Of a DNA stretch of 64,000 nucleotides, positions 2,823-19,914 are shown piece by piece. Source of the stretch: Patescibacteria group bacterium AH-259-L05 (GTDB lineage: Bacteria > Patescibacteriota > Patescibacteriia > UBA2591 > UBA6264); contig JALLOO010000001.1 of assembly GCA_027717985.1 (NCBI GenBank), positions 80,534 through 144,533 of the forward strand. Reading direction: 5' to 3'. The number at the start of each line of letters is the position of its first letter. Positions within the stretch are counted from its first letter, which is position 1. A program made the translations under genes and the position numbers. The notes below the pieces were generated by a model that did no database searches, was not told the origin of the DNA, and was given only the letters and a program-made list of their open reading frames with translations.

Positions 2823-4985
2823 ATGAAAACTGATAAAATTCGAAAAACATTTTTAGATTTTTTTAAGAGAAGGGGTCATGAAATTATTCCCTCATCTTCG
2901 TTAATTCCTGCTGATCCGACAGCATTATTTACTTCAGCAGGTATGCAGCAATTTGTGCCGTATTTGTCTGGTGAGGTTGAACCGCCCTATCGCCGTGCCG
3001 CAAGTGCGCAAAAGTGTTTTCGTACCTCTGATATTGATGAGGTAGGTGATGAATATCATCATACCTATTTTGAAATGCTTGGTAATTGGTCATTTGGTGA
3101 TTATTTTAAGACTGAGGCAATTCAATGGGCATTGGAATTATTGGTAAAAGAATATAAGTTACCACAGGATAAGCTTTGGGTGACTGTATTTTTAGGAGAA
3201 AGAGGCGTGTCCAAAGATACGGAAGCAGCAAAGCTGTGGGAGCAATTTGGCGTTGATAAGAAAAGAATTAAAGAGTTTGGTATGGAGGATAATTTTTGGG
3301 GGCCGGTTGGTTCAACCGGGCCATGCGGGCCATGTACTGAAATTCATTATGATCAAGGCAAAGATTTTCAAAAAGAAAAATGCTCTCTTAATGGATGCGG
3401 GCCGAATTGTAGTTGCGGGAGATTTGTTGAAGTATGGAATTTAGTATTTATGGAGTATCGCAAGACTCGTGAAGGTAAATATGAAAAATTACCTGCGCAA
3501 AACGTTGATACCGGCGCGGGATTAGAACGTCTCGCCGCAGTGCTTCAAAACAAATCATCAGATTATGAAACAGATTTATTTTTGCCCATAGTTAATACAA
3601 TTAAAGAGCTTTCGCCAATTTCTTTGTCATCTCCCCCTCTGTCTTCCCGAGCGACCCCTCCTTTGTCATCCCGAGCGACCCCTCCTTTGTCATCCCGAGC
3701 GACCCCTCCTTTGTCATCCCGAGCGACCCCTCCTTTGTCATCCCGAGCGACCCCTCCTTTGTCATCCCGAGCGACCCCTCCTTTGTCATCCCGAGCGACC
3801 CCTCCTTTGTCATCCCGAGCGACCCCTCCTTTGTCATCCCGAGCGACCCCTCCTCTGTCTTCCCGAGCGACCCCTCCTTTGTCATCCCGAGCGACCCCTC
3901 CTTTGTCATCCCGAGCGACCCCTCCTTTGTCATCCCGAGCGACCGAAGGGAGCGAGGGATCCCAACAAAATGAAAAAGCAGTTCGCGTTATTGCTGATCA
4001 TATGCGCGCCGTGTGTTTTTTAATTGCCGATGGCGTGATTCCTTCAAATGAAGATCGCGGATATATGCTTCGCCGGTTAATGCGAAGGGCGATGCGCTAT
4101 GCTCGCAGGCTTCATATGGGGAAAAATTTTTTAATCCCCATTTGCCAAGTGATCATTGATGTATATAAGGGGCAGTATCCCGAATTACAAAAAAAACAAA
4201 ATGATATTTTAACATTGGTGCAAAACGAAGAAGAAAAATTTATGAAAAGCCTGCGTGATGGATTGAAACGGTTTAGAGTATTAGTACAAGAGACAAAAAA
4301 TCAAGACGAGACTGTTTTAGATCCTCAAAAAACATTTCAACTCTATGATACGTATGGCTTCCCGATTGAATTAACCATTGAGATGGCGCAGGAAAAGGGA
4401 TTAACAGTGGATGAAGTTGGGTTTCAAAAAGAGTTTGAGCGTCATCGAAAAATATCACGCGCCGGCGCAGTGCATAAGTTTAGTGGTGTTGGTGAGTGGG
4501 GAGATAAGGTCGCGCCCCAGCACAGCGCTACCCATTTGCTCCATCAAGCATTGCGCGATGTACTAGGCGAGCATGTGCATCAAGATGGTTCTGATTTAAC
4601 GCCTGAGCGCCTGCGGTTTGATTTTACACACCCTAAGCCATTAACAAAGGAAGAGATTAAAGCAATTGAAGATTTGGTAAATAAGCAAATTGAGCGCGAT
4701 CTCATCGTGACGGTTGAAAAAAAGAAATTTGAAAATGCGGTTAAAGCTGGTGCGCTTGCTTTTTTTAGAGAGAAATATCCTAAAGAAGTGACCGTCTATA
4801 CTATGGGGGATTTTTCAAAAGAGGTATGTACCGGGCCGCATGTTAAACATACGAACCAAATTGGAAAATTTAAAATTGTAAAAGATGAAGCGCTTTCTGC
4901 AGGAGCGAGAAGGATTAGAGCAGTGGTTGAGGGGAGTACATATAAACCAAAAGGGATTTCAGTTTTTGATTCTAAAAGCATTTAA
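2823..4985 (+). CDS. alaS: Alanine--tRNA ligase, short form (no C-Ala domain), carrying a 13x8-aa repeat insertion
   Basis: FTSAGMQQF, RVIADHMRAVCFLIADGVIPSNEDRGY, and the editing-domain motifs HSATHLLHQAL and CTGPHV. 720 aa including about 114 aa encoded by the repeat. Confidence 0.93.
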   Translation: MKTDKIRKTFLDFFKRRGHEIIPSSSLIPADPTALFTSAGMQQFVPYLSGEVEPPYRRAASAQKCFRTSDIDEVGDEYHHTYFEMLGNWSFGDYFKTEAIQWALELLVKEYKLPQDKLWVTVFLGERGVSKDTEAAKLWEQFGVDKKRIKEFGMEDNFWGPVGSTGPCGPCTEIHYDQGKDFQKEKCSLNGCGPNCSCGRFVEVWNLVFMEYRKTREGKYEKLPAQNVDTGAGLERLAAVLQNKSSDYETDLFLPIVNTIKELSPISLSSPPLSSRATPPLSSRATPPLSSRATPPLSSRATPPLSSRATPPLSSRATPPLSSRATPPLSSRATPPLSSRATPPLSSRATPPLSSRATPPLSSRATPPLSSRATEGSEGSQQNEKAVRVIADHMRAVCFLIADGVIPSNEDRGYMLRRLMRRAMRYARRLHMGKNFLIPICQVIIDVYKGQYPELQKKQNDILTLVQNEEEKFMKSLRDGLKRFRVLVQETKNQDETVLDPQKTFQLYDTYGFPIELTIEMAQEKGLTVDEVGFQKEFERHRKISRAGAVHKFSGVGEWGDKVAPQHSATHLLHQALRDVLGEHVHQDGSDLTPERLRFDFTHPKPLTKEEIKAIEDLVNKQIERDLIVTVEKKKFENAVKAGALAFFREKYPKEVTVYTMGDFSKEVCTGPHVKHTNQIGKFKIVKDEALSAGARRIRAVVEGSTYKPKGISVFDSKSI
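3621..3962 (+). repeat. Family-A repeat: tandem array of 13 x 24 bp (CCCCTCCTTTGTCATCCCGAGCGA-type) plus terminal hairpin arm, in frame in alaS
   Basis: 3633-3944 is 13 phased 24-nt units translated as (PPLSSRAT)13. Two units carry the CTGTCTTCC variant. The 3945-3961 arm GAAGGGAGCGAGGGATC pairs with the last unit. Confidence 0.95.
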
Positions 4986-6298: not shown

Positions 6299-7633
6299 AT
6301 GGTAAAAATAGTTTTAAAAAAAATGATTCCCAATCAATTTTTATTGTTATATCATAAGATTTTGGCATATGTAGCTGCGTTTTTGTATGGGCATCCAAGT
6401 AAAAAAATGATTGTTATTGGCGTAACCGGAACTTCAGGCAAGTCAACCGTAGTTAATTTAATTGCAAGCATTTTAGAAGCTGCTGGACATAGATGTGGTT
6501 TAACTACCACATTTAATTTTAAAATTGGCAATAAAGAGATTGTTAATACCATGCGCATGACCATGCCGGGTAGATTTAAGCTGCAAAGTCTATTAAAGCA
6601 AATGCATAGAGCTGGATGTGAGTATGCTATTATTGAAACAACCTCTCAAGGAATTGTTCAATTTCGACATATAGGCATTAATTATGATATGGCCGTGTTT
6701 ACGAATTTATCTCCTGAGCATATTGAATCACATGGAAGTTTTAAAAAGTACCGTCAAGCTAAAGAAGTGCTATTTAAACATGTAACTAAAAAGAAGAATA
6801 AGGTAATTAATGGCAAGAAGATTAAAAAAATAATCGTGGTAAATAGTGATGATGAAAATGCAGAACATTTTTTAAAGTACAGGGCTGATGAAAAATATGA
6901 ATATGGAATACAATGTAAAAGACAAAGTACAGGGCATAACATTATTAAAGCAGAGGATATTGTATCAGGCATTAGGGGGGTAGAATTTAGTATTCAAGGG
7001 ATGGCATTTCAATTGCAGTTGCTGGGTACATTTAGTGTATATAATGCGTTAGCAAGTATAAGTGTTGCGTTATCACAGGGCATAGATTTATCTACGTGCC
7101 AGAAGACATTAGAGGGCATACAAAATATGCCAGGGAGAATGGAAATAGTAGCGCGTGAACCATTAGTTATTATTGATCAAGTATATATACCTGACTCCTT
7201 AGAGAAAGTTTATAAGACTATTGAAAGTTTCAAGTATCAAGTATTAGATTCTAAGACGATTTGTGTATTTGGTGCAGCAGGCGGGGGAAGAGATACGTGG
7301 AAGCGACCAGTTTTGGGAAGAGTTGCACAAAAATATTGTGATTATATAATCGTTACTACTGAAGATCCATACGATGAAGATCCACAAGTAATTATTAATG
7401 AGGTAATTTCTGGTATAGCGAATAATCAAGACTTAATTAAACACAAAAAACTTTTTATGATTCTTGATCGTGAGGAAGCTATTGAAAAAGCATTAGAAAT
7501 TGCACAAAAAAATGATATTGTTGTTATAACAGGTAAGGGCGCAGAGCAATCAATAGTGATAAAAGGTAAAAAAATACCATGGAGTGATAAAAAAGTAGTA
7601 AAAAAGTTGTTAGAGCATAAAAGGAGTGTGTAA
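6299..7633 (+). CDS. Mur ligase family protein (MurE-like UDP-N-acetylmuramoyl-tripeptide synthetase)
   Basis: P-loop VIGVTGTSGKST, Mur central and C-terminal domains, and TTEDPYDEDP (compare the MurE DNPRxEDP region). Confidence 0.72.
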   Translation: MVKIVLKKMIPNQFLLLYHKILAYVAAFLYGHPSKKMIVIGVTGTSGKSTVVNLIASILEAAGHRCGLTTTFNFKIGNKEIVNTMRMTMPGRFKLQSLLKQMHRAGCEYAIIETTSQGIVQFRHIGINYDMAVFTNLSPEHIESHGSFKKYRQAKEVLFKHVTKKKNKVINGKKIKKIIVVNSDDENAEHFLKYRADEKYEYGIQCKRQSTGHNIIKAEDIVSGIRGVEFSIQGMAFQLQLLGTFSVYNALASISVALSQGIDLSTCQKTLEGIQNMPGRMEIVAREPLVIIDQVYIPDSLEKVYKTIESFKYQVLDSKTICVFGAAGGGRDTWKRPVLGRVAQKYCDYIIVTTEDPYDEDPQVIINEVISGIANNQDLIKHKKLFMILDREEAIEKALEIAQKNDIVVITGKGAEQSIVIKGKKIPWSDKKVVKKLLEHKRSV

Positions 7634-11079: not shown

Positions 11080-14000
11080 ATGCCGACACCATCAACAATT
11101 TCCACATTAACGTTACCATCTGATAAAAGAAGACATCAGGCTGATTTTGATGCGATACGTTTACATCTCGCATCACCAAAAGAGATTATGGAGGAATGGT
11201 CATATGGGGAGGTTACGAAGCCAGAAACCATTAATTATCGATCTCGTAAGCCAGAGCGCGACGGCTTATTTTGTCAGAGAATTTTTGGTCCGGTAAAAGA
11301 CTGGCAGTGCGCGTGCGGCAAATATAAAAAGCTGCGCTATCGTGGTATCACGTGTGATCGTTGCGGCGTTGAGATAACGCGATCGTTAGTACGGCGTGAA
11401 CGCTTGGGCCATATTAAACTTGCTGCACCAGTAGCCCATATTTGGTTTTTGCGCAGCGTCCCATCAAAAATCGGGCTGTTGTTAGATATGTCAGTTGCGG
11501 CATTAGAAAAAGTGGCTTATTTTGCTAATTTTATCATTACCCATGTTGATGAAGATTTAAAAGAAAAAGCGCAAGAAAAATTAGAGCAAGAGTTTAATGA
11601 TGAGAAAAAAGCGCTTAAACATGAAAAACATAACGATTCAAAGGAATATGCAAGGAGACTTGAGGATCTAACGACAGCATATAAAGAAACAAAGCGTGAA
11701 ATAACAGAGTTATATGAAAAGCGTTTGTTAACTGAACTAGAATATCGCGAGCTTTCGATGAGCTATGGGCATATTTTTGAGGCTGGTATTGGTGCAGAGG
11801 CAATTTTAAAATTACTTGAAAATCTTGATTTGTCTAAACTTGCACGAGAACTTGAAAAGAAGCGGGGAGAAACAACCAATCCTACTAAAAAGAAAAAATT
11901 ACTCCAGCGTATAAAGTATGTCCACAATTTTATTACCAATAATGTCAAGCCAGAGTATATGGTGCTCCGTGCAGTGCCCGTGATTCCACCAGAACTAAGG
12001 CCATTAGTGCCGTTAGATGGCGGCAGGTTTGCGTCTTCAGATTTAAATGATTTGTATCGACGGATAATCAATCGCAATAATCGTTTAAAACGATTGTATG
12101 ATTTGCATGCGCCAGAGGTGATTTTACGCAATGAAAAGAGAATGCTTCAAGAAGCAGTTGATGCATTAATTGATAATGAAATGCGTTCAGGGAAAACAAC
12201 CATTGCCTCGACTGGGCAGCGAAGGCCCTTAAAATCTTTAGCTGATATTTTAAAAGGAAAGCAAGGGCGATTTCGACAGAATTTACTTGGGAAGCGCGTA
12301 GATTATTCAGGCCGATCTGTTATTGTGGTTGGGCCGCGCCTGAAGTTAAGTCAGTGCGGTCTGCCAAAGCTTATGGCAGTGGAATTGTTTAAGCCGTTTA
12401 TTGCTTCTGAATTAATTAAGCGAGAAATTGTTCATAATGTGAGATCCGCCAATCGTTTAATTGAGACAGGGACTGAAGAGGTATATGCTATTTTAGAAGA
12501 AATTATTAAAGATACACATGTATTATTGAATCGTGCGCCAACACTTCATCGATTAGGCATTCAAGCGTTTCAGCCTGTATTGATTGAAGGAAAAGCGATT
12601 CAAATTCATCCCTTGGTATGTGCAGCATTTAATGCTGATTTTGATGGAGATCAAATGGCGGTACACGTTCCTATTACGAGTCAGGCACGTGATGAGGCAA
12701 AAAATATTATTCTCTCAACACACAATTTGTTAAAGCCGGCAACGGGCGAGCCAATTGTGACCCCAACGCAAGATATGATCTGGGGCGCATATTATATGAC
12801 CTATTGTGAGCGGAGCGAACAACAAGGTTCTGCGAAGCATGGTTCTTATGACGAGCGGAGAGAGGAACAAGGTTCTGCGAAGCACGGTTCTTATATTCAC
12901 AAAAAAAGTAAAAAAGAATATCCGAATTTTAGTAGTATCGATGAAGCAGTGTTGGCATACTCAATCGGGAAAATTACGCTTCAAGAGAAAATTAACGTTA
13001 GAGTTGATTCTGAGCGCAGACAAGTGAGTGTGGGGCGGTTATTATTTAATGCAATTCTGCCAAAAGGAATTTATACTATGGATACCGTGGTTGATAAAGG
13101 GACGTTAAAACAAATTGTAATTAAAACAATTCAAAAATATGGCAGAGATAAGACAGTTGAATTGTTGGATCAAATTAAACAAACTACACTCACGTATTTA
13201 ACAGGATCAGGGCTTTCGTGGGGAATGGATGATTTGCCTGACTTGGAGCAAAAAAAAGAGATTCTTGCTGAGGCAGAAAAACGCATTGATGAGATTAGAA
13301 ACCAATATGAAACCGGTTTGTTATCTGAAAATGAACGATATTTAAAAAGTATCGAAGTGTGGATTAGCGCAAAAGATAAAATTACTGAGGTGGTGAGAAA
13401 ACGAGATCCTGAATTTAGTCCTATATTTTCTATGGTTGAATCCGGTGCACGGGGTTCATGGGCACAGCTTACCCAAATGTTTGGTATGCGTGGTATTGTA
13501 TCTTCGCCAACCGGCAGATTAATTGAGCTTCCTATTAAATCTTCATTTAAAGAAGGATTTAATGTGTTAGAATATTTTATTTCTACCCATGGTTCGCGAA
13601 AAGGTGTATCTGATACCGCGCTTCGTACGGCGAGTGCGGGATATTTAACCCGGCGCATGGTTGATGTATGTCAGGACATTATTATTACTAAAAATGATTG
13701 TAAGAGTGCAAAGGGTTTTAAGTTCACGCGTGAAGACAATACAAAAATGGGAGAAAATTGGCAAACGCGTTTATTTGGCAGAGTAGCAGAAAAGGCAATC
13801 CATGACCCAAAATCAAAGGCTGTTATTGTTCGCAAAAATGATGTTATATCATATGATAAGGCAGAGGAAATACAAAATGCAGATCCTGAAGAGGTAAGGA
13901 TTCGATCGGTATTAACGTGTCAATCAGTGCGCGGTATATGCGCGCGATGCTATGGCTATGATTTAAGCTATAACGAGCCGGTTAAGATTGGTACACCAGT

Positions 14001-15012
14001 CGGTATTATTGCAGCTCAAAGTATTGGTGAACCAGGAACCCAGCTGACGCTGAGGACGTTTCATACAGGAGGTGTTGCGGGTAAAGATATTACACAAGGG
14101 CTTCCGCGTGTTGAAGAGCTGTTTGAAGTTAGGCCAGTAAAGCGGAAAGCAGTTATGGCAAAGCATAAGGGCACTGTTAAGATTATCTCATCAGATGATC
14201 AAAAAAGAGTTAGGATTACCTATCTGAGCAGACAAGAAGATACGTATACCATTGCGGGCAAAAAAGCCAAGCTTAACGTTAAGCAAGGGCAAAAATTAAA
14301 AAAGGGCGATAGTATTGCAATATTACCCTCCTTGTCATCCCGCGCCTCGCGCGGGAAGACAAAAGAAGTGTCATCTTCTGGGAAGAAAATCACGGCGCGG
14401 CATAGTGGAGAAGTTGCTATTGAAGATACGGTGGTTACGGTAACATATGAGGGGGAAAAACATGAAGAGTATGATGTGGCCGGATATACCATATGGGTTA
14501 AAGACAAAGATAAGGTAGAGAAGGGTCAGCAATTAACTGATGGAAGTTTGGATTTGCGTGAACTCTATACATTGCGCGGCAAAGAAGAGGTAGAAAAATA
14601 TATATTGCGGGAAATTCAATATATTTATTCATCTCAGGGGCAAAGATTAAATGATAAGCATGTTGAGCTCATTATTCGTCAAATATTTTCCCGCGTATTA
14701 GTAGTGGATTCTGGTGATACTGATCTTTTGCCCGGAGAGATTGTACCCAAAGCGTATGTAATTGAAGCAAATAAGATAGTTGAAAAAGAAGGTAAGAAAT
14801 CGGCCAAAGTAAAGGAGCTGCTCACTGGTATCACCCGGGTTTCACTCTCGACCGATAGCTGGCTTTCTGCTGCGAGTTTTCAAGAAACATCTCGTGTGTT
14901 AGTTAATGCGGCAATTAGCGGGCGGCCTGATTATTTACGCGGGTTAAAAGAAAATGTAATTGTGGGACAATTAATCCCTGCGGGAACCGGTTTGGAATCT
15001 AGAAAGGCCTAG
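11080..15012 (+). CDS. rpoC: DNA-directed RNA polymerase subunit beta-prime, with two repeat-derived in-frame insertions
   Basis: Zn finger CACGKYKKLRYRGITCDRCGV, catalytic NADFDGDQMAVH, and trigger-loop region DITQGLPRVEELFE. Confidence 0.96.
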   Translation: MPTPSTISTLTLPSDKRRHQADFDAIRLHLASPKEIMEEWSYGEVTKPETINYRSRKPERDGLFCQRIFGPVKDWQCACGKYKKLRYRGITCDRCGVEITRSLVRRERLGHIKLAAPVAHIWFLRSVPSKIGLLLDMSVAALEKVAYFANFIITHVDEDLKEKAQEKLEQEFNDEKKALKHEKHNDSKEYARRLEDLTTAYKETKREITELYEKRLLTELEYRELSMSYGHIFEAGIGAEAILKLLENLDLSKLARELEKKRGETTNPTKKKKLLQRIKYVHNFITNNVKPEYMVLRAVPVIPPELRPLVPLDGGRFASSDLNDLYRRIINRNNRLKRLYDLHAPEVILRNEKRMLQEAVDALIDNEMRSGKTTIASTGQRRPLKSLADILKGKQGRFRQNLLGKRVDYSGRSVIVVGPRLKLSQCGLPKLMAVELFKPFIASELIKREIVHNVRSANRLIETGTEEVYAILEEIIKDTHVLLNRAPTLHRLGIQAFQPVLIEGKAIQIHPLVCAAFNADFDGDQMAVHVPITSQARDEAKNIILSTHNLLKPATGEPIVTPTQDMIWGAYYMTYCERSEQQGSAKHGSYDERREEQGSAKHGSYIHKKSKKEYPNFSSIDEAVLAYSIGKITLQEKINVRVDSERRQVSVGRLLFNAILPKGIYTMDTVVDKGTLKQIVIKTIQKYGRDKTVELLDQIKQTTLTYLTGSGLSWGMDDLPDLEQKKEILAEAEKRIDEIRNQYETGLLSENERYLKSIEVWISAKDKITEVVRKRDPEFSPIFSMVESGARGSWAQLTQMFGMRGIVSSPTGRLIELPIKSSFKEGFNVLEYFISTHGSRKGVSDTALRTASAGYLTRRMVDVCQDIIITKNDCKSAKGFKFTREDNTKMGENWQTRLFGRVAEKAIHDPKSKAVIVRKNDVISYDKAEEIQNADPEEVRIRSVLTCQSVRGICARCYGYDLSYNEPVKIGTPVGIIAAQSIGEPGTQLTLRTFHTGGVAGKDITQGLPRVEELFEVRPVKRKAVMAKHKGTVKIISSDDQKRVRITYLSRQEDTYTIAGKKAKLNVKQGQKLKKGDSIAILPSLSSRASRGKTKEVSSSGKKITARHSGEVAIEDTVVTVTYEGEKHEEYDVAGYTIWVKDKDKVEKGQQLTDGSLDLRELYTLRGKEEVEKYILREIQYIYSSQGQRLNDKHVELIIRQIFSRVLVVDSGDTDLLPGEIVPKAYVIEANKIVEKEGKKSAKVKELLTGITRVSLSTDSWLSAASFQETSRVLVNAAISGRPDYLRGLKENVIVGQLIPAGTGLESRKA
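12808..12894 (-). repeat. Family-B-related tandem duplication (42 + 45 nt) in frame in rpoC
   Basis: Two consecutive copies of GAGCGGAG(C/A)GA..CAAGGTTCTGCGAAGCA(T/C)GGTTCTTAT encode ERSEQQGSAKHGSY / DERREEQGSAKHGSY. The core matches CAAGGTTCTGACGAAGTCAGGTTCTTAT at 58668-58696. Confidence 0.8.
14327..14365 (+). repeat. Family-A repeat (long-palindrome subtype) in frame in rpoC
   Basis: CCCTCCTTGTCATCCCGCGCCTCGCGCGGGAAGACAAAAG. A 14-bp stem (TTGTCATCCCGCGC / GCGCGGGAAGACAA) with one mismatch. Encodes [13 protein letters not shown]. Confidence 0.85.
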
Positions 15013-15108: not shown

Positions 15109-15182
15109 CCCCACCTTGTCATTCCGAGCGAACTGCCCCCTTTTGTCATTCCGAGCGAGCCCAAAGGCGAGCGAGGAATCTC
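15109..15182 (+). repeat. Family-A repeat, intergenic copy (two TTGTCATTCCGAGCGA units plus GAGCGAGGAATC arm) in the ftsK leader
   Basis: CCCCACCTTGTCATTCCGAGCGAACTGCCCCCTTTTGTCATTCCGAGCGAGCCCAAAGGCGAGCGAGGAATCTC. Same architecture as 3921-3961 and 18121-18169. Confidence 0.9.
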
Positions 15183-15206
15183 AAACATTAATGAGTATTG
15201 ATTTTT

Positions 15207-17390
15207 ATGGCTAAAAAAAGACAAAGAAAATCAACAAAGCTTCGAAAAGAGCGTAAAACAAAAAAGAATAGAAAAAGGAGGAAAAAGCAAGGATTTGAAA
15301 AAATGAGTGAATTTCATCGTCAGGCTATATCCATTATTTTGATAGCCCTGTCAGTAATTTTGTTGTTAAGCCAAATTGGACTTGCCGGTATAGCAGGTGA
15401 GTTTTTCGCACTCGGACTTCAAATATTATTTGGCTGGGTGAGCTGGTTTATCCCGGTGATATTTTTAATTTTAGCGTTTATTAGTATTAAATATGATGCA
15501 ATTCAAGATCAGAGTATACTTCGCCTAAAACGGCCGCCTTCATTTATTACTCGTTTTCTCGTCCTAATACTCTTAGCAGTTATATTATCTTCAGCACTTC
15601 ATGTCTCATTTATTAATAATCCAACCGCATTAAACGAATTACAAGGCGGTGGATATATTGGGTATGGCATTAGTTATGTGATGGTGAAAACCTTTGGCAA
15701 TTGGGCAAGTTGGATTATTTTCGCAGCCGCTTTTATTATTGGGTTGTTTGTTGCGCTTTCAGGCATGATAAAGAAAAAACCGAAAAAAGAAGAACGGGTA
15801 GTGGTAAAACAGAGCTTTATACATCGTATTTTTGAAAAAATAAAAAAACTCATATCTCATAAACAGCCAGCAGTTGAGAGCACATCAGAAACAGAAAAGT
15901 TGCTTGAAGTATTACCAGAGGATGAAGGAGCTTTATCCTCTCCCTCAAAACAAAAACCAACACTTCCTATTACGGCGATAAAATCATATCAAAAAGCTGA
16001 TATGCCGTTACATCTATTAGATAGCGCCAGCTCTAAACCAAACGCAGGAGATATTAAGGCGAATAAATTAATTATTAAGCGTACATTAGAGAATTTTTAT
16101 ATTCCGGTGGAAATGGGAGAGGTAAAGGTTGGCCCTACGGTAACACAATATACATTAAAGCCAGCAGAAGGCGTAAAATTATCTAAAATTACCACGCTTC
16201 ACAATGATCTATCAATGGCATTAGCAGCGCATCCGATTCGTATTGAAGCGCCCATTCCCGGCCGATCTATGGTAGGGATTGAAGTGCCGAATGTCCGTGT
16301 TGCCGTGATTCGCTTAAAAGAAATGTTAGTGAGCGATACGTTTAAAAAACGAAAATCAAATTTAACTATATCGCTCGGCCGTGATGTAGCAGGAAGAATT
16401 TGGTTGGCAGATTTATCTAATATGCCGCATATGTTAGTAGCAGGCAGTACGGGATCAGGAAAAACAATATTTTTAAATTCAGTTATTATAAGTTTAATTT
16501 ATCAAAATGCGCCTGAAGATTTGCGTTTTATTTTAATTGATCCAAAACGCGTTGAGCTTACGTTATATAATGAACTGCCGCATTTATTAACCCCCGTTAT
16601 CGTGGATGTTGATAAAACAATTAATGCCCTGAAATGGACTATTGGTGAAATGGAGCGTCGGTTTGACATAATGCATGACGCACAAAAACGAAACATTAGT
16701 ACGTATAATAGCGCGTTTTCTAATAGTAGACTCCCCTATATTATTGTTATTATAGATGAGTTAGCGGATTTAATGGTTACCGCACCACATGAGGTGGAAA
16801 CCTGTATTATTCGTTTAGCGCAGATGGCACGTGCAACAGGAATCCATTTAGTGATGGCAACCCAACGCCCGTCGGTTGACATTATTACGGGATTAATTAA
16901 GGCAAATATTACCACGCGCGTTGCGTTTTCAGTAGCTTCTGCAGTTGATTCACGAACCATTTTAGATTTTTCTGGTGCAGAACGGTTGTTAGGACGGGGA
17001 GATATGCTATTTATCTCGCCTGAGATTTCAAAACCACGGCGTTTGCAGGGCCCGTATGTTTCTGATATCGAGATTAAAAAAGTAGTTGAGTATTTAAAAA
17101 ATATTGCGAAACCTTTGTATAAAGAAGAAGTTACGGAATCACAGCCAGATGATATACGTTCTCATTTTGGCGATTTAAAAAAAGATGAACTTTTAGATGA
17201 GGCGCGCGAGACAGTAATTGCAGCGGGGAAAGCATCGGCATCATATTTACAGCGGCGACTGCGTATTGGCTATGCCAGGGCCGCGCGACTCCTAGATTTA
17301 TTAGAAGAAGAGGGGACTATTGGGCCTCAAGAAGGATCAAAACCACGAGAAGTATACACGTCTTCTTCTAATAAAGAAGACGCGGAGTAG
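15207..17390 (+). CDS. ftsK: DNA translocase FtsK/SpoIIIE
   Basis: N-terminal TM segments, Walker A VAGSTGSGKT, Walker B IIVIIDELADLM, and a C-terminal gamma winged helix (SYLQRRLRIGYARAARLLD). ATG 15207 is preferred. Confidence 0.92.
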   Translation: MAKKRQRKSTKLRKERKTKKNRKRRKKQGFEKMSEFHRQAISIILIALSVILLLSQIGLAGIAGEFFALGLQILFGWVSWFIPVIFLILAFISIKYDAIQDQSILRLKRPPSFITRFLVLILLAVILSSALHVSFINNPTALNELQGGGYIGYGISYVMVKTFGNWASWIIFAAAFIIGLFVALSGMIKKKPKKEERVVVKQSFIHRIFEKIKKLISHKQPAVESTSETEKLLEVLPEDEGALSSPSKQKPTLPITAIKSYQKADMPLHLLDSASSKPNAGDIKANKLIIKRTLENFYIPVEMGEVKVGPTVTQYTLKPAEGVKLSKITTLHNDLSMALAAHPIRIEAPIPGRSMVGIEVPNVRVAVIRLKEMLVSDTFKKRKSNLTISLGRDVAGRIWLADLSNMPHMLVAGSTGSGKTIFLNSVIISLIYQNAPEDLRFILIDPKRVELTLYNELPHLLTPVIVDVDKTINALKWTIGEMERRFDIMHDAQKRNISTYNSAFSNSRLPYIIVIIDELADLMVTAPHEVETCIIRLAQMARATGIHLVMATQRPSVDIITGLIKANITTRVAFSVASAVDSRTILDFSGAERLLGRGDMLFISPEISKPRRLQGPYVSDIEIKKVVEYLKNIAKPLYKEEVTESQPDDIRSHFGDLKKDELLDEARETVIAAGKASASYLQRRLRIGYARAARLLDLLEEEGTIGPQEGSKPREVYTSSSNKEDAE

Positions 17391-17405: not shown

Positions 17406-18149
17406 ATGTCGTTTACTTCAAAACAAGTGAGATCAGATACCTTAGGGCATGTGTTACAACAAACGCGCGAGGATAAGGGATTGAGTCTTAAAGATGTAGA
17501 ACAAAGTACGAGCATTGTTAAAAAATATTTAGAATATTTAGAAGCAGATGATTTTTATAAATTCCCCAGTACAACATATACGCGCGGGATTCTCAAACGT
17601 TATGCAGAGGCGTTAGAATTGGATGCGCGAAGTATTATAAATCAATGGGAACGAGAATATAGCGCTCCTTTGTCATCCCGTCCCCCCTTGTCATCCCGTT
17701 CCCCTTTGTCATCCCGTTCCCCTTTGTCATCCCGCGCGAAGCGCGGGAAGACAAAGGAAAAGTTGTCATCCCGCATCCCACTAAAGTGGGCTTCTCCTAA
17801 AAACGTTGTAGTACTGGCAATCCTTATCTTGATTTTATTATATATTGGTGTTAATATTAAAACAGCGATAGCACCACCATTAATTGAGATTATACATCCG
17901 CCAGATGAATTTATAGCTTCAAAGTCCAGCATTGTCGTACAAGGTACAACAAAACCTCATATAGAAGTATTTATAAACAATCAATTAATTGGCATCGCTG
18001 ATGCTTATGGGGGCTTTGAACAAGTCGTGGCCTTATTGCCTGGTTTAAATACCATTGAGATTTCAGCCAAGAAAAAATATTCGCGTATGCGAACCATATA
18101 CCGCCAGATCGTATTAGAAGCCCCCTCCCTTGTCATCCCGAGCGACTGA
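17406..18149 (+). CDS. RodZ-like HTH/transmembrane protein, with repeat-derived internal segment and repeat-derived C-terminus
   Basis: N-terminal XRE-type HTH ([38 protein letters not shown]), one TM ([16 protein letters not shown]) and a C-terminal beta-rich domain, as in RodZ. Confidence 0.6.
17665..17790 (+). repeat. Family-A repeat cluster (4 x 18-nt TTTGTCATCCCG units, a 17-bp-stem palindrome, one more unit) in frame in the rodZ-like gene
   Basis: Encodes [41 protein letters not shown]. The palindrome is CCTTTGTCATCCCGCGC-GAA-GCGCGGGAAGACAAAGG at 17721-17757, with a GCGAAGC centre. Confidence 0.9.
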
Positions 18150-18169
18150 AAGGAGCGAGGGACTGATTC
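18121..18169 (+). repeat. Family-A repeat spanning the rodZ-like stop codon and the recA leader
   Basis: CCCCCTCCCTTGTCATCCCGAGCGACTGAAAGGAGCGAGGGACTGATTC. It encodes the last 9 aa (APSLVIPSD) and the TGA stop (18147-18149) of the upstream gene. Confidence 0.9.
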
Positions 18170-18189
18170 GTATATTAATATTGATTTTT

Positions 18190-19197
18190 ATGGCACAACA
18201 AGACCAAAAACAAGACAGGAAAAAAGCTGCAGAATCTGCAGTTGAACAGTTGCAGTCTCGGTTTGGCGAAGGGGCTATTATGAAGCTGGGAGAAGCAAAA
18301 AAAATGAAAGTAGATGTGATTCCCACCGGCTGTCTTTCCCTTGATTTAGCATTAGGCGTTGGAGGCATTCCTCGCGGCCGGGTTATAGAAATTTTTGGAC
18401 TTGAGATGACTGGAAAATCAACCCTGGCGCTTCATATCATAGCTGAAGCACAAAAAAAAGGCGGTATAGCCGCTTTTGTTGATGCCGAGCATGCGTTAGA
18501 CCCAGATTATGCCAAGCGCATTGGTGTTAAAGTTGATGATTTATTAATTTCTCAGCCAGATACAGGAGAGCAAGCCTTAGAGATTGTTGAAACATTGGTT
18601 CGCTCAAATGGGGTAGATGTGATTGTGATAGATTCAGTAGCTGCATTAACACCAAGAAAGGAGATTGAAGGCGAGATGGGAGATCATCATATTGGCCTTC
18701 AAGCCCGTTTAATGAGTCAAGCGCTGCGAAAGTTAACCAGCATCGTGGGTAAAACAAAAACTGCAGTTATTTTTATTAATCAAATTCGAATGAAAATCGG
18801 AGTTTATTTCGGGAACCCTCAGACCACGACCGGAGGGTTGGCTTTAAAATTTTATTCATCAGTTAGAATTGAACTGCGCCGTTTAGTACAAATTAAAAAA
18901 GGTGATGAAGTAATAGGCAATCGGGTTAAGGCAAAAGTAGTGAAAAATAAAGTAGCCCCACCGTTTAAAATTGCTGAGTTTGAGATTATGTATAACGAAG
19001 GAATTTCATATACGGGTGATTTGCTTAACTTAGGCGCAAAATATGGTTTGGTAACAAAAAAAGGCAACACCTTATACTATGATAAAGAAAAACTTGGTGT
19101 TGGCTGGGAAAATGCAAAAAATTATTTAAAAGAAAATTCTAAAATGGCAGCTGATCTAAAAAAACAAATCCTCAAATCCCTCAAAGAACAAGAATAA
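18190..19197 (+). CDS. recA: Recombinase RecA
   Basis: [19 protein letters not shown] (P-loop), [12 protein letters not shown] and [13 protein letters not shown] 18190 (MAQQDQK) is preferred, because the 18130 extension is encoded by the repeat. Confidence 0.95.
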
Positions 19198-19261: not shown

Positions 19262-19633
19262 TTATTTAAGATTAGTTAATAATTTATCAACTTCTTGTGG
19301 AAATTTTAAAGCTTTTTTAAAAACTGCATCAGCCATCTTTTCATTATAAGTGTGGGCAATACGGTTTCTGTTGTCTAAAAATTCAAACCATGTTTCAACA
19401 TTTTCAATTAATTCTAGTTTTCCAGCTTGTCTTAGACAATTTTTAGGACTTTGGCAATTAAGGCCCTGGTCTCTAATATATTCCTGAATAGTTTTCCATC
19501 CAAGTTCAAAAGTAAATTCAAATCTTTGAACAGTAGCATCTTTATTCATTCTAGTAGGACTAGCCTTTGTTGCTTGTTTAAGTCTTTGGTTAGCTTTTTT
19601 AAGATCTTTAATTAAACTATAAAGTTTTGTCAT
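19262..19633 (-). CDS. HEPN-domain protein, HI0074-family nucleotidyltransferase substrate-binding subunit (toxin of a HEPN/MNT pair)
   Basis: VQRFEFTFELGWKTIQEY and the RNRIAHTY (Rx4-6H) motif. Overlaps the upstream MNT gene by 4 nt. Confidence 0.85.
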   Translation of the reverse strand: MTKLYSLIKDLKKANQRLKQATKASPTRMNKDATVQRFEFTFELGWKTIQEYIRDQGLNCQSPKNCLRQAGKLELIENVETWFEFLDNRNRIAHTYNEKMADAVFKKALKFPQEVDKLLTNLK

Positions 19634-19914
19634 AATTGTTTTATTTTAGACAAAGCTATGTCTTTAAATTTTTTATCAACGAATGAAAAATCAACAATAT
19701 CAACGTTATATGGCAGGTCAGATTCTTCTAATGCCTCTTCAATTAAAATCTTGGTGCTTGAAGGAATGGGTTTTTTGCTCCAAATGCCAATATCATAGTC
19801 ACTGTATTTTTTAGCTTTACCAGTTGCTCTAGAGCCAAAAATAAAGACTTTGTGAACTTTAGGATCAAGAAATTGAAAAATGATTTTTTTAATTGTTTTT
19901 TCTGCTGATTTCAT
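19630..19914 (-). CDS. Minimal nucleotidyltransferase (MNT) domain protein (antitoxin partner)
   Basis: IFGSRATGKAKKYSDYDIGIW (GS...DxD pol-beta-type NTase motif). 94 aa. Confidence 0.8.
   Translation of the reverse strand: MKSAEKTIKKIIFQFLDPKVHKVFIFGSRATGKAKKYSDYDIGIWSKKPIPSSTKILIEEALEESDLPYNVDIVDFSFVDKKFKDIALSKIKQL

Follow-up and report, generated by a model that had tools for sequence, protein, structure and literature searches.

In-frame tagged hairpin repeats, probably of the REP/SRM kind, in the linker of a RodZ-like protein from a Patescibacteria bacterium

Introduction

The 64,000-nt stretch of DNA analysed here (the window; contig JALLOO010000001.1, positions 80,534 to 144,533, of Patescibacteria group bacterium AH-259-L05) holds a gene for a RodZ-like membrane protein whose linker is encoded by a run of short repeats and a strong palindrome. 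Is this run a device of the one gene, or a local copy of something more widespread? In our view the rodZ cluster is likely to be a group of short, oriented hairpin repeats of the (C/T)GTC-tagged REP or Ssn-related motif (SRM) type that has entered the cytoplasmic linker in frame. Because the repeats are dispersed, absent from orthologues, spread over many phyla and found at the flanks of Ssn-type genes, we file them with the (C/T)GTC-tagged REP/SRM repeats. Being copies of a widespread tagged repeat, they represent a known selfish kind in an unusual place and not a gene-specific device. Elements of this kind, and their presence in frame within genes, are already known; the Patescibacteria host, a repeat-coded stretch of 119 residues in alanyl-tRNA synthetase (AlaRS), a tag-bounded cassette and one-sided arrays of 5' half-units are possibly new.

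Two bodies of work bear on such repeats. Di Nocera et al. (BMC Genomics 2013, PMC3733652) defined a superfamily of CGTC-tagged REPs in which the tag is CGTC, often TGTC, stems 'almost invariably' begin with complementary AT, loops are short and head-to-head dimers occur. The paper equates members with Neisseria dRS3 and with the Rickettsia palindromic elements (RPEs) RPE-4 and RPE-6 of Rickettsia conorii, documents copies inside known genes that code for extra residues, reports the repeats without a dedicated transposase and cites Ogata et al. (2000) for RPEs lying in frame in open reading frames (ORFs). Chenal et al. (Nat Commun 2025, PMC11893778) describe Ssn proteins, small single-domain GIY-YIG enzymes that bind such hairpins only as single-stranded DNA (ssDNA) and only on the tagged strand. 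Cleavage falls a few nucleotides upstream of the tag, and the repeats typically border the genes for these enzymes, as in NTS-ssnA-NTS. A cytosine after the palindrome (...GGGAAT-C) is reported there as critical for binding, and NTS repeats are rarely intragenic (2% in N. meningitidis). Tagged REP/SRM repeats obtained a cognate enzyme only with that work of 2025.

Anatomy of the rodZ repeat cluster

The RodZ-like protein (ORF 17406..18149, + strand, 247 aa) comprises an HTH_25 domain, a linker, one transmembrane helix and an Ig-like C-terminal domain; the RodZ-type HTH_25 was found at residues 17-76 (Pfam, E 2.5e-20). The repeat run and palindrome at 17665-17790 lie wholly inside this ORF. As a sequence-only reading of the locus had proposed, they are read through as protein, and the stretch that they encode falls between the HTH_25 domain and the hydrophobic helix. 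The four 18-nt units coding for PLSSR(P/S) described in that reading were recovered by Tandem Repeats Finder (TRF) as a run at 17667-17734 with period 18, 3.8 copies and 94% matches (consensus CCTTTGTCATCCCGTTCC). Motif matches start at 17670, 17688, 17706 and 17724. The first three belong to truncated 5' half-units (17667..17720, + strand, period 18 nt), each made of a C-rich leader, a TTGTCAT tag and CCCG and encoding PLSSR(P/S); the fourth serves as the palindrome's left arm.

This palindrome, a complete double-tagged hairpin that we call type 2, occupies 17721..17757 (37 nt, no strand assigned), reads CCTTTGTCATCCCGCGC-GAA-GCGCGGGAAGACAAAGG and encodes 12 residues. Its 8+8 bp (16 pairs) are arranged around one A·A mismatch and end in a GCGAAGC apex. 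The bottom strand reads TGTCTT-CCCGCGC, and the stem is 17 positions long because the tag is present on both strands; the 17-position palindrome with one A·A and a GCGAAGC centre noticed earlier is thus seen at 17721-17757. Folded as ssDNA, it reached -19.3 kcal/mol against -5.7 +/- 1.8 for shuffles (z -7.7; 0/200 shuffles as good), and a second fold gave z -8.9. The fold-energy check suggested in the sequence-only reading returned a z of about -8 for DNA, and when 17655-17800 is folded as RNA this hairpin is again the dominant structure.

A fifth half-unit, TTGTCATCCCG, matches the motif at 17763..17773 (+ strand) and forms the right boundary of a variable cassette described below. It is followed at 17777..17790 (+ strand) by a small hairpin, CCCAC-TAAA-GTGGG, of -3.8 kcal/mol (z -2.9). 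Both had been pointed out before and are present. Relatives have CCCTTTAAAGTTAG and AAAGTTGG at the position of the small hairpin, neither of which folds into one, and it probably stands outside the repeat family.

The 3' end of the gene carries a unit of another build, type 1, at 18121..18163 (+ strand): CCCCCTCCC-TTGTCAT-CCCGAGCGA-CTGAAAG-GAGCGAGGGAC. It provides the last nine codons (APSLVIPSD) and the stop codon and is read in another frame than the linker copies. In its basic form a unit runs from a C-rich leader through a TGTCAT tag into a stem that starts from AT-CCC, a GCGNAGC mini-hairpin apex, and then GGG-AT-C.

The mini-hairpin d(GCGAAGC), studied by Hirao and co-workers, is reportedly unusually stable, and the apex of the rodZ palindrome is exactly GCGAAGC. 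Here it caps a larger element recognised by protein and is not itself the functional unit, and a near-identical palindrome in rpoC has a CTC loop.

Comparison with orthologues and a close relative

The search for homologues of the RodZ-like protein returned 35, mostly of 215-226 aa and without the linker insert. All 16 orthologues that were aligned (16/16) have short linkers without the insert, lack the C-terminal extension and mostly end in ...VLEE. Orthologues that share the linker while lacking a nucleotide-level repeat, named in the sequence-only reading as the outcome that would tell against it, did not appear; the orthologues have no such linker.

The closest homologue is that of Patescibacteria group bacterium AH-259-L07 (locus L001), a locus syntenic with the window (rpoB-rpoC-ftsK-rodZ-recA) and 92-96% identical in DNA. 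We compared the repeat sites of the two genomes in the rodZ linker, the rodZ 3' end, rpoC and the rpoC-ftsK spacer, and each was empty or different in L001. The 3' element of rodZ is a filled site in the window and an empty site in L001, rpoC of L001 is shorter by ~51 nt, palindrome included, and its rpoC-ftsK spacer is unrelated to that of the window. The type-2 palindrome of rodZ is absent from L001 and from all aligned orthologues.

Within the rodZ linker, the first unit and the last half-unit are common to the two genomes and the interior is completely replaced. The blastn high-scoring segment pairs match 17406-17694 with L001 10001-10289 and 17763-18120 with L001 10421-10778, so that the shared part comprises the first half-unit and continues through the TTGTCAT of the second. 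The match breaks off at 17694, the last base of one TTGTCAT tag, and restarts at 17763, the first base of the next. Between these points lies a lineage-variable cassette of 68 nt (17695..17762, + strand), in place of which L001 has 131 nt with TTGTCATTGCGAGG-type units. An effect of the hairpin on local recombination, raised in the sequence-only reading, is supported by this complete replacement against a relative of 92-96% identity. It is of note for annotation that Pro/Ser/Arg-rich 'linkers' and odd C-termini of Patescibacteria proteins can be repeat-derived and lineage-specific.

Other copies in the window

The motif TTGTCATCCCG, allowing at most one mismatch, has 22 matches in the window where 0.58 are expected, and 0/100 shuffles reached 22. 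Five loci account for the matches: alaS, rpoC, the rpoC-ftsK spacer, the rodZ-like linker and the rodZ-like 3' end. Each copy lies on the + strand, co-oriented with the genes and within the first 19 kb; none of the tagged repeats was found in the window's 45 kb of minus-strand genes. The anatomy, the coding context and the link to alaS given in the sequence-only reading hold up. The structure is not a feature of rodZ; the rodZ cluster is one of five window insertions of a dispersed, oriented, multi-phylum family of hairpin repeats of a known type.

The alaS array (3621..3962, + strand) consists of ~13 half-units followed by one complete type-1 hairpin, and its 24-nt period, with which that of the rodZ run had been compared, was found by TRF with 12.9 copies. 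It translates as (PLSSRATP)n. Residues 265-383 of AlaRS, 119 in number and repeat-coded, match only 6 residues of the solved AlaRS 9jc7 and fall between the protein's first and second aligned blocks. A variant, CTGTCTTCCCG, occurs in the array at 3639-3654 and 3855-3870, that is in units 1 and 10 of ~13, which amounts to a higher-order pattern; the TGTCTT of these variant units is also the bottom-strand tag of the rodZ and rpoC palindromes.

In rpoC, a type-2 palindrome near-identical to the rodZ copy (TTGTCATCCCGCGC-CTC-GCGCGGGAAGACAA; 14332..14362, no strand assigned) encodes 12 residues. It has the arms, A·A mismatch and reading frame of the rodZ copy but a CTC loop, and it folds at -14.8 kcal/mol (z -6.8). 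Behind it, at 14369, comes a TGTCATC half-unit. The intergenic copy in the rpoC-ftsK spacer (15110..15182, + strand) shows two left halves 27 nt apart, one right arm and an ATTCC/GGAAT stem variant. The linker and loop copies inside alaS, rpoC and rodZ share a single frame, TTG TCA TCC CG, read as LSSR. In every window array the 5' halves come first and one complete unit follows, and all copies leave long ORFs open. Rfam, scanned over the window at gathering thresholds, gave a single tRNA only.

The right arm of the double-tagged palindrome (GGGAAGACAAAGGAAAAG, coding GKTKEK) resembles native lysine-rich coding sequence at or beside both insertion sites. The window positions concerned are 14349-14395 and 17741-17762, and the native look-alikes are GGAAAACAAAAAG in L001 rpoC (6760-6807) and GGCAAGAGTAAAAAAAAG in L002 rodZ (~2205-2235). 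This resemblance could reflect a target preference or a coincidence of composition.

The family across phyla

Genomes, one per species, were scanned with the 15-mer TTGTCATCCCGMGCG, which returned at least 120 stretches; figures for the family refer to the matches listed. Acidobacteriota are in the majority among the hosts, and Verrucomicrobiota, Planctomycetota, Gemmatimonadota, Pseudomonadota, Bacteroidota, Actinomycetota, Chloroflexota, Omnitrophota and several more phyla are also represented. The family consensus is TTGTCAT-CCCGAGCG-NAGC-GAGGGATC, and a matching right arm was present in 101/131 GAGCG-type matches. The GCGAAGC centre emphasised in the sequence-only reading is present in rodZ but not peculiar to it: GCGNAGC forms the apex in 57 of 102 complete copies, GCGAAGC being the commonest version (23/102). 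An inverted partner lay at most 200 nt away in 34/138, and double-tagged single hairpins of the rodZ kind were found in other genomes too.

Tagged units, including half-unit arrays, also occur on contigs classed as viral (L217, L139, L151, L174); a narrow profile hidden Markov model (HMM) found no Ssn-like gene on them. Several other viral matches are chance hits inside a conserved phage gene. A metagenome scan for the window-specific loop variant CCCGAGCGACYGAARGGAGCGAGGG yielded 12 untagged hairpins on unrelated contigs, with neither a relative of this genome nor a GIY-YIG gene among them, none of 8000 candidates from a protein search with the repeat peptide (PLSSRATP)n reached E <= 0.001, and the sole match to sequence variants of the motif as text strings in the literature was unrelated. 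An untagged hairpin, CCCGAGCGACTGAAAGGAGCGAGGG, stands 2-5 nt upstream of ATG in unrelated low-GC metagenome contigs (L124, L128, L131, L132, L133), and its loop or right arm holds a Shine-Dalgarno-like GGAG.

Association with GIY-YIG genes of the Ssn family

The motif is physically associated with genes for small GIY-YIG proteins. At locus L030, a 108-aa GIY-YIG gene (PF01541) lies between inverted copies, and the right copy codes for its last eight residues and the stop codon. All four Acidobacteriota loci inspected (L030, L135, L137, L138) have such genes, of 108-127 aa, with the motif on both sides. Among the best 120 of 4148 homologues of the GIY-YIG protein, 108 have C-terminal peptides coded by the repeat. 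The L030 protein matched one locus of N. gonorrhoeae with 48% identity (E 1e-16). This locus is bordered by canonical NTS repeats (CGTCATTCCCGC..GCGGGAATC), which identifies the match as ssnA.

GIY-YIG genes adjoin the motif in just 2 of 120 genome loci and 0 of 80 viral loci, as judged with a regular expression and a home-made HMM. From this rarity it follows that most copies are solo, as REPs are relative to their enzymes. NCBIfam holds no model for the motif-flanked GIY-YIG protein.

Two observations concern individual loci. In two Acidobacteriota genomes the motif-flanked GIY-YIG cassette sits in the carA-carB spacer (L137 1345-1923; L138 1334-1962). The plasmid collection includes a 2.17-Mb record from N. 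gonorrhoeae (L220; NZ_CP119142.1, 1881319-1882373), whose ssnA-like frame lacks an ATG where its start would be expected, the upstream ATG being out of frame with it.

Likeness to known repeat systems

We compared the repeats feature by feature with described systems. As in the SRM/NTS elements of PMC11893778, an oriented 5' (C/T)GTCAT tag precedes an AT-initial hairpin, a C appears to follow the stem in type-1 copies, many copies are dispersed and clustered, and the motif stands on both sides of ssnA-homologous single-domain GIY-YIG genes. The (H)GTCWY tag expected directly 5' of the palindrome is TGTCAT in every copy, the exceptions being TGTCTT in two alaS units and in both palindromes when their bottom strand is read. 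With the ~20-50-nt hairpin-forming inverted repeats of that system the units in rodZ and rpoC agree. The cytosine after the palindrome is present in the alaS unit (GGGATCC) and in the spacer unit (GGAATCTC), and the rodZ 3' unit reads GGGACTG; the rodZ and rpoC palindromes end in GGGAAGAC, and C follows only if the extended stem is counted as palindrome. Repeats inverted around an Ssn-family gene were found for the motif family but not for this genome. In contrast to SRM/NTS, the stem is interrupted by tandem G·A / A·G (type 1) or spans both tags (type 2), and copies reside inside essential genes, as 5'-half arrays and in a Patescibacteria host.

The unpaired CGTC/TGTC tag and A-T/T-A stem start of the CGTC-tagged superfamily are found here as TGTC|AT-CCC...GGG-AT. 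Type 2 has a perfect 8-bp core with a 3-nt loop, compared with stems of 8-9 bp and loops of 4-5 nt in the Di Nocera families. The type-1 stem runs for 5 bp, a G·A/A·G interruption and 2 bp, with a loop of 3 nt in the consensus and of 7-9 nt in the window copies. The four families of PMC3733652 differ in having uninterrupted 8-9-bp stems and mostly alpha-Proteobacteria as hosts, and the accessible part of the paper does not name Patescibacteria as hosts. Text searches of PMC3733652 and PMC11893778 turned up neither tandem, truncated or partial units like these nor slippage.

With the RPEs of Rickettsia the repeats share in-frame read-through in conserved genes (alaS, rpoC and the rodZ-like gene) and absence from orthologues: in both cases a selfish palindromic repeat is read as protein in essential genes of a reduced genome. 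Classical RPE-1 elements measure ~100-150 bp. They are longer than the present units of ~30-40 bp, which come with tandem half-units. The link to RPEs goes by description, through PMC3733652, which equates RPE-4 and RPE-6 with CGTC REPs.

Several other assignments were tried and rejected. A CRISPR array was ruled out for the alaS and rodZ runs, whose units are head-to-tail, without spacers and inside ORFs, and an intrinsic terminator was ruled out for the rodZ hairpin, which no T-run follows. REP/REPIN elements with RAYT, as Nunvar and colleagues (2010) and Bertels and Rainey (2011) are said to have described them, reportedly have a GTAG tag and an IS200/IS605-type tyrosine transposase. They resemble the present repeats in being short hairpins with an unpaired tag, in forming inverted doublets and in flanking a single-copy enzyme gene with its own repeats. 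Membership was rejected, the tag here being TGTC(AT), not GTAG, and the flanked gene GIY-YIG (PF01541).

Several results weigh against the assignment to tagged REP/SRM repeats. The type-1 units have conserved complementary arms, but their computed folds are weak (-3.5 to -6.9 kcal/mol) and not significant. The rodZ palindrome ends in GGGAAGAC, not GGGATC, which places the Ssn-critical cytosine outside its canonical register. The published SRM string HGTCWYN(0-2)YYVSBRHN(0-5)WNVSBRGN(0-2)RNCYNB, written as a regular expression, matched nothing in the window, the five elements or the Acidobacteriota consensus, while the NTS control matched. Neither the 64-kb window nor the 17-kb stretch of L001 contains a GIY-YIG/Ssn gene, so that for this genome the enzyme link is drawn by family. 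None of the 120 listed TTGTCATCCCGMGCG matches is from a Patescibacteria genome. The mismatch to the published string marks a gap in the published search: a very abundant class, TGTCAT-CCCGAGCG-NAGC-GAGGGATC, flanks Ssn-family genes at the four Acidobacteriota loci inspected yet escapes that string.

Array polarity and a possible mechanism

The arrays are one-sided. Elsewhere, in the genomes and viral contigs listed, an extra left half was found at most 45 nt upstream in 18 of 151 complete elements and an extra right half downstream in 0 of 151. The loci for this count had been retrieved with a left-arm pattern, which could inflate the number of left halves somewhat but cannot explain zero right halves. 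Array periods elsewhere range from 12 to 46 nt, and among the matches listed multiples of three (6/15) are not in excess. Set against these, the intragenic periods of 24 and 18 bear out the proposal that only in-frame expansions survive in ORFs. At one locus, L090, at least 6 x 17 nt form an array in non-coding DNA; the 'ORF' that covers it was rejected, its translation looking like a spurious GC-rich reading frame.

The polarity fits the oriented biology of Ssn, and we infer that it speaks against symmetric hairpin stalling as the sole cause. The one-strand orientation of the window copies, together with the one-sided stutter, would be consistent with strand-specific binding and nicking by Ssn. 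In our main reading, a cognate nuclease would recognise the folded unit on just one of the strands, as ssDNA, and nick a few bases 5' of the tag, as do the Ssn of Neisseria and Wolbachia. The nick, or a stall at the hairpin, would duplicate the 5' half, after which the array would lengthen by ordinary tandem-repeat slippage, and new cassettes would be exchanged between tags. Copies in genes would survive only where the frame is kept and the site is a tolerant linker or a domain junction. The protein outcome would be a passive, fast-evolving Pro/Ser/Arg-rich linker with no designed function. Going further, tentatively and with low confidence, we put forward that the 5'-half arrays and the tag-bounded cassette are footprints of birth and spread: an Ssn-type nick just 5' of the tag may prime strand-displacement synthesis that stalls in the hairpin, duplicating tag and left arm and letting new hairpin cassettes be captured between tags, and in a streamlined Patescibacteria genome this may be actively remodelling essential proteins, namely AlaRS, RpoC and the RodZ-like one. 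The one-sided stutter of tag and left arm and the breakpoints at tags are clues that can be tested against the known nick position of Ssn.

The same family could have been spread by another driver, without Ssn, through hairpin-induced stalling and template switching, gene conversion or another transposase (RAYT-like). The absence of an ssn gene from the window and L001 would suit this, as would the 2013 account of CGTC-tagged REPs without a dedicated transposase (PMC3733652). For Ssn itself transposition has not been demonstrated, its authors merely noting an insertion-sequence-like architecture (PMC11893778), and the alaS variants in units 1 and 10 form a pattern typical of slippage or unequal exchange. 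Pure stalling, however, should double either half according to fork direction, and the count of 18 left against 0 right halves speaks against it. The motif is inverted around Ssn-family genes at 4/4 loci and codes for the tails of 108/120 best homologues, and no tyrosine-transposase-like gene was noticed beside any copy, though no systematic search was made. We regard a driver other than Ssn as unlikely.

That the insert is instead a feature selected in this one gene, either an adaptive low-complexity spacer grown by slippage or a hairpin acting in cis on rodZ-recA expression or replication, is highly improbable. In its favour are the great stability of the hairpin as DNA, its presence in the RNA fold, the position of the insert in a linker, where length could matter, and the one LSSR frame used by all three intragenic sites. 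Yet the motif is present at four other loci of the window, including non-coding DNA, and across phyla; the orthologues function without the insert; the 92-96% identical relative has unrelated units in the slot; and neither a T-run nor any other regulatory signature follows the hairpin. That the run is an assembly artefact, or an intervening sequence excised ahead of protein synthesis, is scarcely credible even though short-read assemblers can mis-count tandem units and 119 repeat-coded AlaRS residues are a large burden, since the outer units of the rodZ cluster recur in the independent assembly L001, all copies keep long ORFs open, the Rfam scan with its one tRNA only found no known intron or ribozyme family, and Rickettsia offers documented cases of REPs translated in frame (cited in PMC3733652).

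Further observations in the window

At 12805-12892, rpoC carries an 88-nt in-frame insert of two 45-nt units (GAGCGGAG..AACAAGGTTCTGCGAAGCAYGGTTCTTATGAC) that is absent from L001. It belongs to a different repeat family, with a GCGAAGC core again and a CGTCAT tag on the bottom strand.

An identical 16-mer, TATTGATTTTTATGGC, occurs at 15196-15211 and 18179-18194, after the spacer element and the rodZ 3' element, where it runs into the start codons of ftsK and recA. L001 has it at neither place, and ftsK has gained an extra GCT codon. Either a longer module common to the two loci or gene conversion between them is suggested by this. A general promoter motif was ruled out, as the window holds just two exact copies.

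Around 19200-20000 gene orientation turns from + to - and the cumulative GC skew peaks. All tagged repeats are on the + side; the minus-strand side has zero copies and a lower G+C (about 0.27-0.37). At 19262-19914 (minus strand), ORFs of 123 and 94 aa look by translation like a HEPN-type protein and a nucleotidyltransferase. In L001, an adjacent pair of HEPN and NTP_transf_2 genes takes the corresponding place after recA, on the strand opposite to that of these window ORFs.

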